From sequence record NZ_CP118109.1: DNA of 64,000 bases; one strand, 5' to 3'. Positions 13,110 through 20,002 of this stretch are shown here, one piece after another. The stretch is from a plasmid. The notes beneath the pieces were generated by a model that was given only the letters and a program-made list of their open reading frames with translations, did no database searches and was not told the DNA's origin. The position numbers and the translations under genes were made by a program. How positions within the stretch are numbered: the stretch's first letter is position 1; the number at the start of each line of letters is the position of its first letter.

Positions 13110-16100
13110 TTAATTTGGAGTTGGATAATCTCTTGGTTCTTTTCTTATTGTAATATCAGATATTTTAGTTTGACCAGGATTTTTTAGAGCAATATCACAT
13201 ACGATGATGGAACGCTTCGAATTGAAGTCAGAAGGATTCAACACAATCGTTTGAAGTATAGAGCCCGTACCTGCATCTACAATTTCAACTTGCGGTGCTC
13301 GATCAAGATCAGAAACATCAACGCCGTAATATTTATCAACTGCTAACGTAAGTGTTCTGTTTACAAAACCATCCACCGTAATGATTTCCACTTCATTGTT
13401 CCAGTGGTCGATTCCACTATTTCGTATATGATCAGCGTAATCGAAGTTGAGATAAATTTTATTCGCTCCTTCAATATATGATCGATAACTTGGGTAATCA
13501 GCATCCACACGGGAACCGTAGAATATATGCTTAGCTTCATCTCTATCAAGGTATCCGTGTAGATCCATATCTGATCTCGCATCAGGAGCAGTGCTTGATG
13601 GGATGCCCCATCTTAATCTAAAGAGTAAGTCATAGCTGTTTTCGATGCTTCCTTCATCAGGCGTTGATCCGGGCGGTGGAACTGAGCAATCCACCACATT
13701 GATTTTAATTCTCCGCGTTACTATCTTGCCATCTGTACCGGTGGCTGTAATAACAACGTATCCAGATAAGAGCTCTCCTGCGTCTTCTGATATCTGGCCA
13801 GAAATACTGTTAAGCTGGTTCCCGTAGTCCCCTCTGATATCAAGGTACTGACCACCGGTTCCATCGCTAAGCTGCTTTAACGAGAACATTCCTTCTTCCA
13901 TCGGACCAATGATATTCAAGATCACACCTTTTGCCTTCATAGCACTTATGGTTTGAGCTGCGGTATAGGCCGACATTTCATCCACTTCTTTATCATGGAA
14001 ATGTGCATCGGTCACTAAGACAAAGTGCTTCGCGGCATTGTCTCTAAAATCATAAGTGAGTGCTCCATTTACAGGATCCATAATGGATTCCAGAGCCGAT
14101 TCTCTTATGTCTCCTCCGCTGGCTAACACAATGGATCTCAGCATGGATTCAAACTCTGAAGTGCTTGTAGTCATTGCTGTCTTCGTAGTCGGCTCACCAT
14201 AGTTTATGTCGCTGTATCGCACACAGCCAAGTCGATAGTTTACGCTGTCATCATTCAGCCTTCTGATGAAGTTGTTTACATTGTCTGCTACTGAGGCAAT
14301 ATGTGCTCCCATACTTCCGGAGTAGTCAATCAAGAAGACGATATCTGCAATACCACCTTCACTGGTTTCACCCGTTCCGCCTTCTCCGAATGCTCTTGAA
14401 GGAATCGTGAAACTAAAGTCTTCGTGAAACGCATTGCCATTTCGTTGATAGAACTCTTCTCCATTGAATGTCGCCCTAATCTCAGCAACTTTAGGCGCAA
14501 TCTCTGCATATCCCCCAATGGTTAATGGGTCTGTATTACAGTGTGTGATCTCTTCTGGATTAAGTGATGGCACCGTGACTTCAAGAATTGGATCAGCTCC
14601 TACCCCTGTTTCCGGGTCAGAGTTATGCTCTGGATCAATGGAGCAGACCTGAGAAGTAAATAAATCCATGTGCTTGCTTACAATGAAGTCTCCTGTCTTA
14701 CCGATCACAGGGGCATTGCCGTAGTTTCCTGCATCTACTTCTGCCACCCATGGCAGCTCATCTAAGTTCTTCGGCCCGCCAGTCATCCAGCCGGTGTTCT
14801 TTGCTCCTGCTGTCTTGAAGTTAATATCCGAAGCCCATGCGGTTTTCGAATCATCATAGAAGTCTTTGAAGATGATGCCGACTCCCGTTAGGAAGATGTT
14901 GTTTGCGCCGGTTGCATTCCGGATCATAAGCGATACGCCTTTATAATAATCCGACCATCCTGCAACCAGTGTAACAGGCCCCGCCTTCGTCTCGATCGTC
15001 AACTCCTGAGTTACAAGCCATTCCAAAGGCACAATATTCGTCTGCATTTCTTTGGTCACGTCACTGTAATACTGGAAGATGATCTTATCTAGCATCAAGC
15101 AGTCGCGGACTGGATTCTTCTCCGGATCATAATCTGGAACGTTCGGGTTCGTTGGATCTTCTTCTGGCGAGTCATCATCTTCTGGACGGATAATATCTTT
15201 ATTGATCGGACATTGATTCGAACTCCAAGCAGAAGGGAATTTGAATTTAACATAGTCACCTTTCGATCCGATCGATGGGCTTTCCGTATAGCTGCCGCTT
15301 GTGAGGATTTGATTCATCCATGAAGTATCTTTACCTGTAGGATCACCAAGCATCTTCCTGCTGTTCTTTACACCTGCGGTTTCGTAATAGATGTTGGATG
15401 CCCAGGCTGTTTTTGCATTATTGTGTTCATCCAAATAATTGACGCCAATCGAGCTGAGCTGGAATCCGTAGCCACTGCTGTTTCCTCCATCTTTAAACCA
15501 TGCAGTAATCGTGTCGTCTTCTCCCCATCCGAACATGGCCGTTGCCCCGTCACCATTGTTAATTTCATACGGGAGCCAGTCGGCAGGAATATCAAACTTT
15601 TTAATGTCTTGAAGATTGGCATCGTAGTATTCCACATGCAGTGTATCGAACATTAAGCAGTCTCTCACCTTCGGTCCTTCCGGATCAATTGAGCAATCCT
15701 TCACTGTGACCGTCATGCTGTCGGATGCCTCGTTACCTTCGCTATCATAAGCCTTCACTTCAACCACAAAGCTGTCACCTACTTCATGACCAAGCGTTGG
15801 GTATCGGAAGTTGAAGGTTTGTTCATAAGGCGAAGCAGCCATCCAGAAAGGACTATGGTAGCCATCGATCACAACCGTCTCACTCATTCTTCTGAAGCTT
15901 GCCGTGCTCATTACATCAATGGATTCCATGTTCTTAACGTACTTCTCCATGAATGCGTATTGCTTAGGGAAGTTGTCTCTCAGGAAACTTGGATTGATAA
16001 TGTACAATCTGTAAGCTTCAGCGAATCCTTCTGCGGGCTGCGTACATCCATAAGCAGTGACAGGTGCTTCTTTTCCGTTGTCTAGCTTCGTTCCCGGATT

Positions 16101-18092
16101 CGATTTATTTAGCTTGTAGTATTGTCTCATACCCGACCAGTTGATGGAGTCCCACCCGCTAATCTCTTGCCATTCTCTGTAGTCGTGCAGGCTCTTACCT
16201 ATGTCGCTTGCATATTTATGGCCAGCATCAAACTTATAATAGTCCGCCCCGTAGAATCCAACAGCATGTCCAATCTCATGGATTGCAATCTCTCCTGCAA
16301 TGTATGGTCGGCATGCGGGCTGATTGTTGTTGAGTGTCTGCAGGTCTGCTGTTCCTAGCGATCCTACTGGGAGCCAGTAGCTCTTGTATTTGTCCAGCGG
16401 CGTCAGCGTGTCGCTCTCATCCCTTGAAGAGTTAGACGTATAATCTGTTGGCCGGTATGCCATAAGATTGATGACACTGGCATTCAAGGCATCAGGTTCA
16501 AAATTAATAAAGGAATAAAATTGCGGCAGCTCCCCATCCTTCGCCCAAGCCGCGACACTCGGATTACCTTGAATATCATTGAAGTCGATCCAGTGATAGG
16601 TGTACGTATTCGTCTTGGCCACAAGGTCAGACAACGTATCAATAATATCTCCTGAAAGATATGAGCTTGCACTTGGGAAGAAGAAGCTGATGGCCTTGAT
16701 CTTATAGGTTGCATAGATGCTGCCCAGCTGAAGCTCCGTCAATCCCGGTAAATTACTTACCGCCCACGACTTAAACGTCGACCACGGCTGAGGTAATGTG
16801 ACTAGTCCTCTTAAGTTGTCTTGATGGAACTTCCATAGATAGGCATGAAAATTCTGAATACTGATATTGCTTTTGGTATAGATCGTATCTTCTTCAGGAG
16901 CAAGCGCTCGTCTAACCTTCTCCATGAAATCAAGCCATTGGTTTCTTCCGGTAAAGAAGTTAGGCTGTATATTCAGTGGCACGATATTACCTGCAGTAAT
17001 TTGGACATTCCCGCTAAAGGCTTTATTTCCTGTCCAGTAATCTTGGTTAATACTTGATGGTGAGATTGAGCCGTCTACAAAATAGCTGATGCTGTTCGGC
17101 GTGTTCGGCTCAGTCGGCGTCTCCGGCTCTGTAGGCTCCTCTGTGACGATATCTTCAAGAGGTGTTCCGTTGACAAGCATAACGACTTTCGTAATTGGAT
17201 ACGGGCCGTCAGCCACTCCAGACACGATTAAATCATCACCATAGCATATCTCTGTTGTCTTAGGTGTGATGGTGACTTGCAGCTCATCTGGCTGCTCAGG
17301 ATTAGGATCATCTTTATCTGGAATCCCATCCCCGTCTGTATCTTTATCTGGATCATCCTCCTCTTCCCCACAGTTTTCGAATCTCACATAGTCTGTGGTG
17401 TGTGTATCTCTTCCTTGGTCCGTATAAACGACAGCAATCAATTGCAGATAAGTTCTTTCTTTAACTCCCCATTCATCCAATGTTGCCTTTGGTATGACGA
17501 GTTCAATGCTCTCTTCAACACTTCCAGGATAGGTGTATTCTTTATAAACAAACTCTGTTAGCTTGCCACCTTTGTGCCGCATTTTGAATTTGAGAACAAT
17601 TTTTATAATCTTCTCTTCTTCACTCGCTGTCCAAGCACGCACCTTAACAGGATAATCTATTCCTAAGCAGTACTTATCCGGATTGTCTTTTCTTTCAAGG
17701 ATTCTAATATAGATGCGCCCATTACTCGAGACACCATCACTAGGGTCGTCAGGAAGATCATCTTCTGGGTCGTCCGTTCCGCCGCCTCCGCCCGGATTGT
17801 CAGGATTGCTTCCGCCTCCTGGGTTATCTTCGTCACCCGATCCTCCGCCGCCTCCTGGATTCTCTGGGTCAGTTGGATTGGTTGGATTCGTCCCACCGCC
17901 CCCAGGGTTATCTGGCGCAGACGGATCCGCAGGCTCTGGCGGATAATACGGCGGATCAACAACGTCAGAACCGCTGCCGGATTCGCTTGTACTTGCCCTG
18001 CGCAGGGAAGCTTCGCTATCGGAAGCCTCCGCGCCAGTGTATGCTTTAATCGTGAAGCCTTTTAAGAGAGGCGTTTTATTCTTCTGGGTCAT
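13110..18092 (-). CDS. Giant 1660-aa virion protein. It has a Gly/Pro/Asn-rich low-complexity N-terminus, TSP3-like calcium-binding Asp-rich motifs, an HEXXH zinc-metalloprotease motif, and a C-terminal von Willebrand factor A domain with a MIDAS motif.
   Basis: Motifs seen: NPGGGG repeats; DKDTDGDGIPDKDDPNPE; IAIHEIGHAVGF; DIVFLIDYSGSMG...GGDIRE...HFVLVTDA. The start overlaps the stop of the upstream gene (ATGA). Confidence 0.65.
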   Translation of the reverse strand: MTQKNKTPLLKGFTIKAYTGAEASDSEASLRRASTSESGSGSDVVDPPYYPPEPADPSAPDNPGGGGTNPTNPTDPENPGGGGGSGDEDNPGGGSNPDNPGGGGGTDDPEDDLPDDPSDGVSSNGRIYIRILERKDNPDKYCLGIDYPVKVRAWTASEEEKIIKIVLKFKMRHKGGKLTEFVYKEYTYPGSVEESIELVIPKATLDEWGVKERTYLQLIAVVYTDQGRDTHTTDYVRFENCGEEEDDPDKDTDGDGIPDKDDPNPEQPDELQVTITPKTTEICYGDDLIVSGVADGPYPITKVVMLVNGTPLEDIVTEEPTEPETPTEPNTPNSISYFVDGSISPSSINQDYWTGNKAFSGNVQITAGNIVPLNIQPNFFTGRNQWLDFMEKVRRALAPEEDTIYTKSNISIQNFHAYLWKFHQDNLRGLVTLPQPWSTFKSWAVSNLPGLTELQLGSIYATYKIKAISFFFPSASSYLSGDIIDTLSDLVAKTNTYTYHWIDFNDIQGNPSVAAWAKDGELPQFYSFINFEPDALNASVINLMAYRPTDYTSNSSRDESDTLTPLDKYKSYWLPVGSLGTADLQTLNNNQPACRPYIAGEIAIHEIGHAVGFYGADYYKFDAGHKYASDIGKSLHDYREWQEISGWDSINWSGMRQYYKLNKSNPGTKLDNGKEAPVTAYGCTQPAEGFAEAYRLYIINPSFLRDNFPKQYAFMEKYVKNMESIDVMSTASFRRMSETVVIDGYHSPFWMAASPYEQTFNFRYPTLGHEVGDSFVVEVKAYDSEGNEASDSMTVTVKDCSIDPEGPKVRDCLMFDTLHVEYYDANLQDIKKFDIPADWLPYEINNGDGATAMFGWGEDDTITAWFKDGGNSSGYGFQLSSIGVNYLDEHNNAKTAWASNIYYETAGVKNSRKMLGDPTGKDTSWMNQILTSGSYTESPSIGSKGDYVKFKFPSAWSSNQCPINKDIIRPEDDDSPEEDPTNPNVPDYDPEKNPVRDCLMLDKIIFQYYSDVTKEMQTNIVPLEWLVTQELTIETKAGPVTLVAGWSDYYKGVSLMIRNATGANNIFLTGVGIIFKDFYDDSKTAWASDINFKTAGAKNTGWMTGGPKNLDELPWVAEVDAGNYGNAPVIGKTGDFIVSKHMDLFTSQVCSIDPEHNSDPETGVGADPILEVTVPSLNPEEITHCNTDPLTIGGYAEIAPKVAEIRATFNGEEFYQRNGNAFHEDFSFTIPSRAFGEGGTGETSEGGIADIVFLIDYSGSMGAHIASVADNVNNFIRRLNDDSVNYRLGCVRYSDINYGEPTTKTAMTTSTSEFESMLRSIVLASGGDIRESALESIMDPVNGALTYDFRDNAAKHFVLVTDAHFHDKEVDEMSAYTAAQTISAMKAKGVILNIIGPMEEGMFSLKQLSDGTGGQYLDIRGDYGNQLNSISGQISEDAGELLSGYVVITATGTDGKIVTRRIKINVVDCSVPPPGSTPDEGSIENSYDLLFRLRWGIPSSTAPDARSDMDLHGYLDRDEAKHIFYGSRVDADYPSYRSYIEGANKIYLNFDYADHIRNSGIDHWNNEVEIITVDGFVNRTLTLAVDKYYGVDVSDLDRAPQVEIVDAGTGSILQTIVLNPSDFNSKRSIIVCDIALKNPGQTKISDITIRKEPRDYPTPN

Positions 18093-20002
18093 TCTTCATC
18101 CTCCGGTCTTTCGAATAGCATTCTTAATCTGAGACTATATACTGGATATTCTGATTCAATATAGCCGGTCTTTGTCGTAAGTGCTTGGCTCGACTTCTCT
18201 ACCTGCTGCACCGTATATATTTTAGGCGGCGCCTCTTCCCCACCACTGTTATACTCTTGATGCTCAAGCGGTGAAATCGGATACCACGTTGCACCATCGT
18301 CGATGGAGATAAAGTATTTAATCCATTTATACTCCGTTCCTGGCTGTGCATTTTCAATCATGAGGGGATTGTCTTCATTTACAGACAGCGTAATCTTCTC
18401 AAGCGGCTGTTCAAAGAAATAGGGCTCTGTGACGATCTCTCCGCTTTGTTCATACTCATAGGAATAAACGTTAATGTTTCGGATGCCGATAGCGTAGCGC
18501 CAGCCCTCGAAGCGCTCTGTGCCGATATCAATCGTCTGCTGTGTGATGCCTCTTGATAAAGAAGTTATGGCATCATCGAGCACTGGACTTGAAGCGTCTT
18601 CGCCTTGAAGCGGATAGTAGGCGCTAACAGACGAATCCTTTACGCTAACTTCAACACCGATATCTTGCAGTGCCATGAGCGGGCCTTCCACTCGGGGAAG
18701 ATAGCCTGGCTTAACCTGCTTGGTTGCGGTATTCATCGCATAGTCGATATCGCTTCCGGTTTGCTGATTCTGTTCATAGTACTCATGGCCAATATCGGTG
18801 TAGTACTTTGTCCGCTGCTCAAACAATACGGAAATGACTTTAGCTGTTCGCGGAGCAAAATGAAATACATAATCATCATCTTTTTTATTTGACCCGATTA
18901 CGGATTCTGGCATCCCGCTGCCGTCTGAAATAAGAATGTCTTTTACGATTGCTGTTCTTGCACCTTGGTTCGGCGGCGTATACATCTCAACATCAATCGC
19001 ATTTACGGTTGTCGCTTCATTTAGGATGATCTGCATATGAAGCTTCAACACACCATTCTCCGGATCTCTTGCCCAATTCAATCTTTGATTTCCATGCACC
19101 TGATAAGCGAAGCCTAGATTCTTGGCCACGTTCTGCTTATCATGATCTCGGATATTTACCAGCTCGTATTCGAACCATGTATCCGGGTTTCCATCAAGCA
19201 CGGATCCGTATGCGGCATGGTTGTTCTTACCGCCAACATACTGGTAGGTGTAGTCATTCTGAGTGTTTCCTCCGCTCACTGTTACCTCATGATTATTGCC
19301 AGGGAATCCGTTGGACTCCGTGCCAAGGATGAAGCTGTCGTAAGTCTTGTTTCCTGGAATGATTGTAACCTGCGCTACCTGACTTAAGTTGATACTATCC
19401 GTCTGCGGTAACGTCACAATGCCGTTCTCAATGCTGGCTGCTGTTCCGGTTGTGCGATCATAATCAATCTTATCGTTATTCAGAAAGTCATTGCGGTGGA
19501 ACGTGATCTTTCCGTTCGACTGCATATTAGAAGATAGAAGCTGCAGGTCTTTTAGCTTATCCTGTATCACCCCGAACTGGCTTTGCAGGATGCTGTGCTG
19601 TACCATGTTATGATTGAAATCCGTATACAGCGCTCTGCCGATCAGATCAATCTCCTGATACATAATCTCCATATCTTTTTTAATCTCATCCATCATGCTG
19701 TTGTAGTCTTCTGACCATGGCGGCCCGCCTTCGGGAGCAAGACGCAAGACCATCTGCGGTTGCCCTATCGAAGTGAAGAAACTCTCGAACGCTTGGAAGA
19801 CGGTCTGTATCAGCTTCGTATTTGTCTTAATGCTTCCATCATCGAATGCGGCTTTAGCTGCATCGAATTGTGCTTTCGCCTGCTCATACAGGAGCTGCGA
19901 ATTATTCTTAATAGGTTCACTCATCTCGCACCTCTTGATCATAAGTCTGACAACGAATGGACCAGCTATATACGGAAGGTGTAACGCTCTCGTAACCGGC
20001 AC
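18089..20002 (-). CDS. Structural protein, family A paralog 3 (about 611-637 aa): a helical N-terminus plus a discoidin-like domain (GSVLDGNPDTWFEYELV).
   Basis: The probable start is the ATG at about 19924 (MSEPIKNN), with the SD AGAGGTG. It forms an ATGAGTGA overlap with the stop of the 19917 ORF. The track start at 20002 is probably an over-extension. Confidence 0.5.
   Translation of the reverse strand: MPVTRALHLPYIAGPFVVRLMIKRCEMSEPIKNNSQLLYEQAKAQFDAAKAAFDDGSIKTNTKLIQTVFQAFESFFTSIGQPQMVLRLAPEGGPPWSEDYNSMMDEIKKDMEIMYQEIDLIGRALYTDFNHNMVQHSILQSQFGVIQDKLKDLQLLSSNMQSNGKITFHRNDFLNNDKIDYDRTTGTAASIENGIVTLPQTDSINLSQVAQVTIIPGNKTYDSFILGTESNGFPGNNHEVTVSGGNTQNDYTYQYVGGKNNHAAYGSVLDGNPDTWFEYELVNIRDHDKQNVAKNLGFAYQVHGNQRLNWARDPENGVLKLHMQIILNEATTVNAIDVEMYTPPNQGARTAIVKDILISDGSGMPESVIGSNKKDDDYVFHFAPRTAKVISVLFEQRTKYYTDIGHEYYEQNQQTGSDIDYAMNTATKQVKPGYLPRVEGPLMALQDIGVEVSVKDSSVSAYYPLQGEDASSPVLDDAITSLSRGITQQTIDIGTERFEGWRYAIGIRNINVYSYEYEQSGEIVTEPYFFEQPLEKITLSVNEDNPLMIENAQPGTEYKWIKYFISIDDGATWYPISPLEHQEYNSGGEEAPPKIYTVQQVEKSSQALTTKTGYIESEYPVYSLRLRMLFERPEDEE

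Follow-up and report, generated by a model that had tools for sequence, protein, structure and literature searches.

Little is understood of how tailed phages pass through the protein surface layers of Gram-positive bacteria, and the virion depolymerases covered by reviews act almost entirely on carbohydrates (PMC6116005). Binding and cutting a host surface protein is a strategy barely documented for phages. A locus on the minus strand of plasmid record NZ_CP118109.1 raises the question of whether such a strategy exists: within the 64,000-nucleotide stretch analyzed here (the window), a preliminary description had noticed a giant open reading frame that appeared to join a zinc protease to a von Willebrand factor A (vWA) domain. 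What would such a protein do in a phage tail? From its sequence, we conclude with moderate confidence that it is an accessory protein of modular build in the distal tail (baseplate-fiber), namely an enzyme carried on the virion that would bind a host surface protein and cleave it.

The gene within a distal tail block

The gene is a complete coding sequence (13110..18092, minus strand), a single uninterrupted ORF of 1660 residues over the span originally described, and the identical protein was also called on an independent Logan contig. An orthologue of 68% identity (P0003) shares the same architecture. A Shine-Dalgarno sequence GGAGG (18100..18104, minus strand) is found 7 nt 5' of the ATG, which overlaps the TGA stop codon of the upstream ORF as ATGA, and this arrangement also occurs in the related phage contig L006. 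The protein would be made by translational coupling to its upstream partner. A programmed frameshift joining the two ORFs was ruled out by the lack of a slippery heptamer, and is also contradicted by the junction, which reads GAAGAATGA in the window and GAGCAATGA in L006, yet keeps GGAGG and ATGA. The N-terminus has no hydrophobic signal-like segment, consistent with cytoplasmic assembly.

The upstream partner (18089..19924, minus strand) is a homologue of gp172, a low-copy virion structural protein of Bacillus phage 0305phi8-36, as demonstrated by tblastn against ORF172 and by a match to positions 1-604 of phrog_21108 (E=3.7e-209). Its start is likely the ATG at 19924, giving 611 residues; the start as listed, a GTG at 20002, probably lies too far upstream. 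Beyond gp172, the neighbors of the 1660-residue gene are homologues of gp171, gp173 and gp175, and all four counterparts are virion proteins of 0305phi8-36 verified by mass spectrometry. The gene itself is placed between the gp172 and gp173 homologues, with the same synteny at the L012 locus. Neighbor homology therefore bears out the proposed tail-module location, within the distal tail/baseplate-fiber block. Judged from these homologies, the phage is distantly related to 0305phi8-36, the best explanation being a large Bacillus-type, 0305phi8-36-like myophage of Bacillota. A 20-kb piece of the window found no match among phages by megablast, and tblastn of the whole 1660-residue protein against 50,697 phage records gave only two partial matches. 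By contrast with this locus, 0305phi8-36, vB_BceM_WH1 and Moorella phage MTATph1 have gp172 followed directly by gp173, without a protease cassette.

The cassette comprises, in order, a protease module, two repeats, the vWA domain and a C-terminal domain. Its parts co-occur in five representatives (P0003, P0015, P0020, P0026 and P0028), most of them about 30% identical in the module. In the more distant relatives P0014, P0015, P0020 and P0026, gp172 and the cassette form one polypeptide of 2500-2955 residues, the N-terminal ~600 residues of which are matched by the gp172-like ORF, whereas the two genes are split in this phage and in L006. As the paralogous N-terminal anchor domain common to gp171-175 is absent from the 1660-residue protein, its attachment rests on the gene-fusion argument. 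A fiber-block position and a physical link to a virion anchor, as expected of enzymatic phage receptor-binding proteins, are both supported by genetic evidence. Synteny and gene fusion thus point to a virion location, where the protein most likely rides on the gp172 homologue.

A zinc metallopeptidase module related to anthrax lethal factor

Residues 334-740 (15873..17093, minus strand) make up a zinc metallopeptidase module resembling family M34, of the anthrax lethal factor (LF) and Pro-Pro endopeptidase (PPEP) type. A word-indexed homologue search of the module returned only two matches; its relatives were obtained by an exhaustive profile search. They are about 25-35% identical, with a mean column identity of about 30% in the module alignment. 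Nevertheless, H605, E606 and H609 of the HEIGH motif (residues 605-609; 16266..16280, minus strand) are invariant in the 28 aligned sequences, and HExxH is kept in all 49 relatives with a full module; by chance, the motif is expected 0.022 times in a protein of such size and composition. HEIGH aligns with H686-E687-xx-H690 of LF, which predicts H605 and H609 as zinc ligands and E606 as the general base.

The LF catalytic center aligns at a second motif, YGCTQPAEGFAEAY (16011..16052, minus strand), in which Y681-x6-E688-x3-E692 corresponds to LF Y728, E735 and E739 with identical spacing. This agrees with the M34 arrangement, where the Glu that serves as third zinc ligand lies within E-x-F-A-E on a downstream helix, 7 residues after the catalytic Tyr. 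Taking the roles of these LF residues to be established, we assign Y681 as the catalytic Tyr and predicted transition-state stabilizer, and E688 as the predicted third zinc ligand, which the preliminary description had left to be located. Y681 is conserved in 28 of 28 sequences, whereas the position of E688 has 25 Glu and three Asp, and that of E692 has 27 Glu and one Asp. Retention of the active-site residues at a column identity of about 30% indicates selection on catalysis, and the module is predicted to be a catalytically intact gluzincin endopeptidase of the M34 type.

An AlphaFold model of the module, built from the 28-sequence alignment (an earlier alignment of three sequences yielded a pLDDT of 39.7 and was unusable), assigns HEIGH to a long helix (model residues 258-285). 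The fold is similar to that of LF domain IV and PPEP, with weak Foldseek E-values (0.011). Among structures a toxin comes closest, and among small homologues the PPEPs, with further matches to the LF N-domain, EF and Certhrax; a Foldseek search of the viral structure library BFVD found nothing at E<=1e-3. Matches to Pfam M90, ATLF and M57 are weak but fall on the right residues. The ATLF score is 13.7 bits, below the gathering threshold of 27.4; the relatives P0018 and P0014 reach 24.6 and 20.7 bits, and only distant matches such as P0055 (32.9 bits) pass. Distant relatives of the module belong to Pfam M90, Peptidase_Mx or ATLF, and an NCBIfam match to MtfA is also sub-threshold. In view of the sub-threshold ATLF score, the module is best called M34-like, a separate family of the same clade. 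The families suggested at first, M60/enhancin, M6 and M9, gave way to M34, as neither sequence nor fold matched any of them. Taken together, these comparisons argue that the HEXXH marks a real zincin active site under conservation, as was first claimed. That it arose by chance outside a protease fold has a negligible probability, refuted by conservation and fold evidence despite the sub-threshold Pfam peptidase matches.

Compared to its known counterparts, the module differs in context and build. The catalytic domain of LF (MEROPS M34, Pfam ATLF PF07737) belongs to a secreted toxin, whereas the module here is part of a phage tail protein, spans ~400 residues with an extra N-terminal helical/β region, and comes without a protective-antigen-binding domain. 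PPEP-1, PPEP-2 and PPEP-3, of Clostridioides, Paenibacillus and Geobacillus, are secreted bacterial enzymes of ~200 residues that share only 17-23% identity with the module.

Might the zincin fold serve as a non-catalytic receptor-binding scaffold, in a protein that is purely an adhesin? Every other domain is of an adhesion type (vWA, Ig-like spacers and repeats), and the anthrax toxin family does include inactive LF-like domains, as in the matches to the LF N-domain, EF and Certhrax. Such inactive domains have lost HExxH, whereas H605, E606, H609 and Y681 are invariant, and E688 and E692 nearly so, in relatives of only ~25-35% identity, which makes a binding-only role very unlikely.

The module is present in about 50 sequence clusters from phage metagenomes. 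In many relatives it is the C-terminal domain of a fiber-like protein of 500-900 residues, and in Bacillus phage EZ-2018a and other contigs it stands behind N-terminal anchors annotated as "virion structural protein". In EZ-2018a, the tape measure and the M23 tail lysin precede this protein, and paralogues devoid of the module come after it. Enzymatic receptor-binding proteins are classically laid out in this way. In EZ-2018a-like phages, the module substitutes for the C-terminal domain of paralogous fiber-like proteins.

For the zincin domains of other phage virion proteins, namely the MPTases of P1 DdrB, N4 vRNAP and polyvalent proteins, an autoproteolytic role has been proposed (PMC5512222), which counts against our main reading. 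By analogy, the protease might cut its own protein or neighboring fiber proteins at Pro-rich linkers, during assembly or once triggered, with no host substrate. Several Pro-rich linkers occur in the protein (residues 45-60, 321-333 and 970-995), the closest small homologues are Pro-Pro endopeptidases, and the large gp172-cassette fusions of the relatives might need processing. However, here and in L006 the gene is already separate from gp172 while all catalytic residues are kept, the fiber-like proteins that end in the module offer little to process, and the conserved linkage to adhesion-type domains (vWA and repeats) fits an external target better. We therefore consider self- or virion processing unlikely.

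The polyvalent zincins (PMC5512222) and the ALF-MPTase cargo of PVC-type contractile systems (PMC3482391) are likewise HExxH...E zincins on phage particles or tail-like machines. There, the zincin is joined to nucleic-acid-targeting or toxin domains in proteins packaged into the head or tube, whereas in the 1660-residue protein it is joined to adhesion-type domains only, and the gene is part of the fiber block; the adhesion-type domains, the only others detected, and the tail-block position do not fit polyvalent proteins, which pair the zincin with nucleic-acid-targeting or other effector domains in a head-packaging context. The precedent of toxin cargo (PMC3482391), together with a toxin as the closest structure, raises the idea that the phage ejects the LF-like domain into its host cell, or that another organism is the target of this domain. 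We regard a delivered effector as exceedingly improbable, given that the gene is located among peripheral fiber/baseplate genes and not with tube or tape-measure cargo, that the protein is 1660 residues long with bulky adhesion domains, and that no immunity-like gene was noticed beside it.

Spacers, repeats and a MIDAS-bearing vWA domain

From its N-terminus, the protein would consist of a terminal peptide, a disordered linker, β-sandwich spacers with one Ca-loop, the zincin, the repeats, the vWA domain and the C-terminal domain. Residues 1-40 (17973..18092, minus strand), starting with MTQKNKTPLLKGFTIKAYTG, are kept in P0003 and P0005, whereas the following linker is not, and we propose this peptide as a docking segment. 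The linker (residues 41-125; 17718..17972, minus strand) is a low-complexity tract rich in Gly, Pro, Asp and Asn (21, 18, 15 and 8, respectively, in 85 residues). It contains four NPGGG motifs at residues 62-103, in agreement with the NPGGGG-type low complexity first reported. Nonetheless, "collagen-like", as the tract had also been called, is wrong, since it has no G-X-Y run of at least four triplets and its sequence has diverged in the 68%-identical orthologue; the tract is a disordered linker. Tandem Repeats Finder detected no DNA tandem repeat in the gene, the Gly-rich tract included.

A probable β-sandwich spacer domain follows (residues 126-246; 17355..17717, minus strand), kept in P0003 and weakly in P0020. 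Next to it, the expected array of thrombospondin-type-3-like Ca-binding repeats shrinks to a single Ca-loop motif, DKDTDGDGIPDKDD (residues 249-262; 17307..17348, minus strand). The pattern DxDxDGxxDxxD is matched exactly at residues 251-262, the sole match among all ORF segments of at least 100 residues on both strands of the window, and the motif is kept in P0003 as DKDSDGDGIPDKDD; there is no tandem array, and Pfam TSP_3 gave nothing at E<=1 in the protein. A probable Ig-like spacer 2 (residues 268-320; 17133..17291, minus strand), to which similar segments occur several times in P0005 and P0020, leads into a Pro/Thr/Glu linker (residues 321-333). Behind the zincin lies the Ig-like spacer 3 (residues 741-805, ending in VTVKDCS; 15678..15872, minus strand), which is present in 3-6 copies in P0003, P0005, P0014, P0015 and P0020, one of the P0014 copies overlapping a Pfam Big_7 match.

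Between the zincin and the vWA domain, two repeats of ~175 residues are predicted. The β-rich repeat A (residues 808-985; 15138..15671, minus strand) is 30% identical to repeat B (residues 993-1170; 14583..15116, minus strand), with E=1e-23, and matches positions 910-1287 of phrog_21108 (E=8.4e-40). The pair is kept in P0003, P0014, P0015, P0020, P0026 and P0028.

The vWA domain (residues 1245-1440; 13773..14360, minus strand), with DIVFLIDYSGSMG at residues 1250-1262 and HFVLVTDA at 1356-1363, bears out its original assignment. Pfam VWA matches residues 1250-1417 at 50.6 bits against a cutoff of 23.8 (E=3.5e-13), and VWA_4 scores 36.6 against 27 bits. Integrin_beta (E=1.5e-4) and the vWA adhesins of NCBIfam (CglD, MIDAS adhesin) stay below threshold, the PDB matches are collagen VI vWA domains and an integrin β2-like I domain, and the domain is homologous to the vWA of CDS0050 of MTATph1. 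The MIDAS motif D1256-Y-S1258-G-S1260 (14313..14327, minus strand) and the T-D1362 pair are kept, as DxSGS and TD, in seven of seven aligned vWA domains of relatives. Further predicted ligands are D1362 and D1328/E1331. The middle MIDAS ligand is a Thr in the α-I type and a Glu in the integrin β type; here the GG-T position is D1328, followed by E1331, the relatives having GGxWE. The MIDAS may be complete and the domain integrin β-like, a tentative β-I-type assignment that draws partly on the β3 sequence. A vWA domain in the tail module of this lineage is not new, as gp164 of 0305phi8-36, a virion protein verified by mass spectrometry, is annotated with a bacterial vWA domain; gp164 has no significant similarity to the 1660-residue protein.

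The C-terminal domain (residues 1482-1660; 13113..13649, minus strand), a candidate distal binding domain, matches phrog_16549 (E=3.2e-7), a family without a functional label, and is kept at the C-terminus of P0003, P0014, P0026 and P0028. Nothing was found for it in PDB, Pfam or large databases, and a word-indexed search with the C-terminal 222 residues gave no match. The sole PDB match by phmmer, parvalbumin, was a chance one, and assignment as a DUF2135/YfaP-type β-sandwich, a fold that occurs after vWA domains, found no Pfam match and is unsupported.

The target might also be a non-protein peptide polymer, either the stem peptides and cross-bridges of peptidoglycan or a poly-γ-glutamate capsule, rather than a folded surface protein. 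Bacillus, which relatives of this phage infect, includes poly-γ-glutamate producers, and tail lysins commonly contain zinc peptidases, M23 for example. A few virion-associated enzymes are known to cleave polypeptide material (PMC6116005). Against this, the window already encodes a tail hub/lysin protein of 2145 residues whose C-terminal domain is a lysin, and Pfam searches of the 1660-residue protein found no SH3b, LysM or SLH cell-wall-binding domain. Moreover, the fold matches M34 endopeptidases, and the known substrates of these (LF and PPEPs) are proteins. Such a depolymerase role is hence rather improbable.

A candidate protein-cleaving enzyme of the virion

With an LF-type protease and a vWA domain in one tail-block protein, the probable strategy of this phage is to bind a host surface protein and cut it, and the sequence is still best read as that of a protein-degrading enzyme carried on the virion. 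We infer that the protein is part of the virion, that it is active, that its substrate is an extracellular host protein and that the vWA domain and the protease cooperate. At host contact, the vWA/MIDAS domain, the repeats and the C-terminal domain would grip a proteinaceous surface component, which might be a protein of the S-layer, an adhesin anchored in the wall or some other surface protein rich in Pro. Candidates of this kind resemble the substrates cut by bacterial PPEPs. The tethered zincin would then cut the gripped component, and the protein coat might be thinned or removed so that the baseplate reaches the wall, or receptors might be destroyed. Tailspike and fiber depolymerases and the baculovirus enhancin follow the same logic, a virion anchor with a distal enzyme directed against a host surface barrier. 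Penetration enzymes are not a general requirement, as an S-layer-penetrating phage of solved structure has no enzymatic domain for penetration (PMC11948020).

Our literature search on HEXXH proteases of phage tail fibers and on PPEP-like phage proteins found nothing directly relevant. The protease domain is absent from PHROGs, has no significant BFVD match and scores below Pfam thresholds, which renders it invisible to routine phage annotation. We tentatively suggest that the protein could be the founding example of a tail-fiber "protein depolymerase" family, in which an LF/PPEP-type endopeptidase, tethered to the virion beside an integrin-like MIDAS adhesion domain, captures and cuts a specific protein barrier of Gram-positive hosts (S-layer or wall-anchored adhesin). 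A conserved M34-type protease at a fiber position would be a concrete candidate for a virion-borne protein-cleaving enzyme. If active, it would open up a further supply of proteases that cut surface proteins sequence-specifically, could serve as a marker of phages targeting protein-coated hosts, and, should the family reading be true, it would represent a so far undescribed enzymatic route through protein coats.

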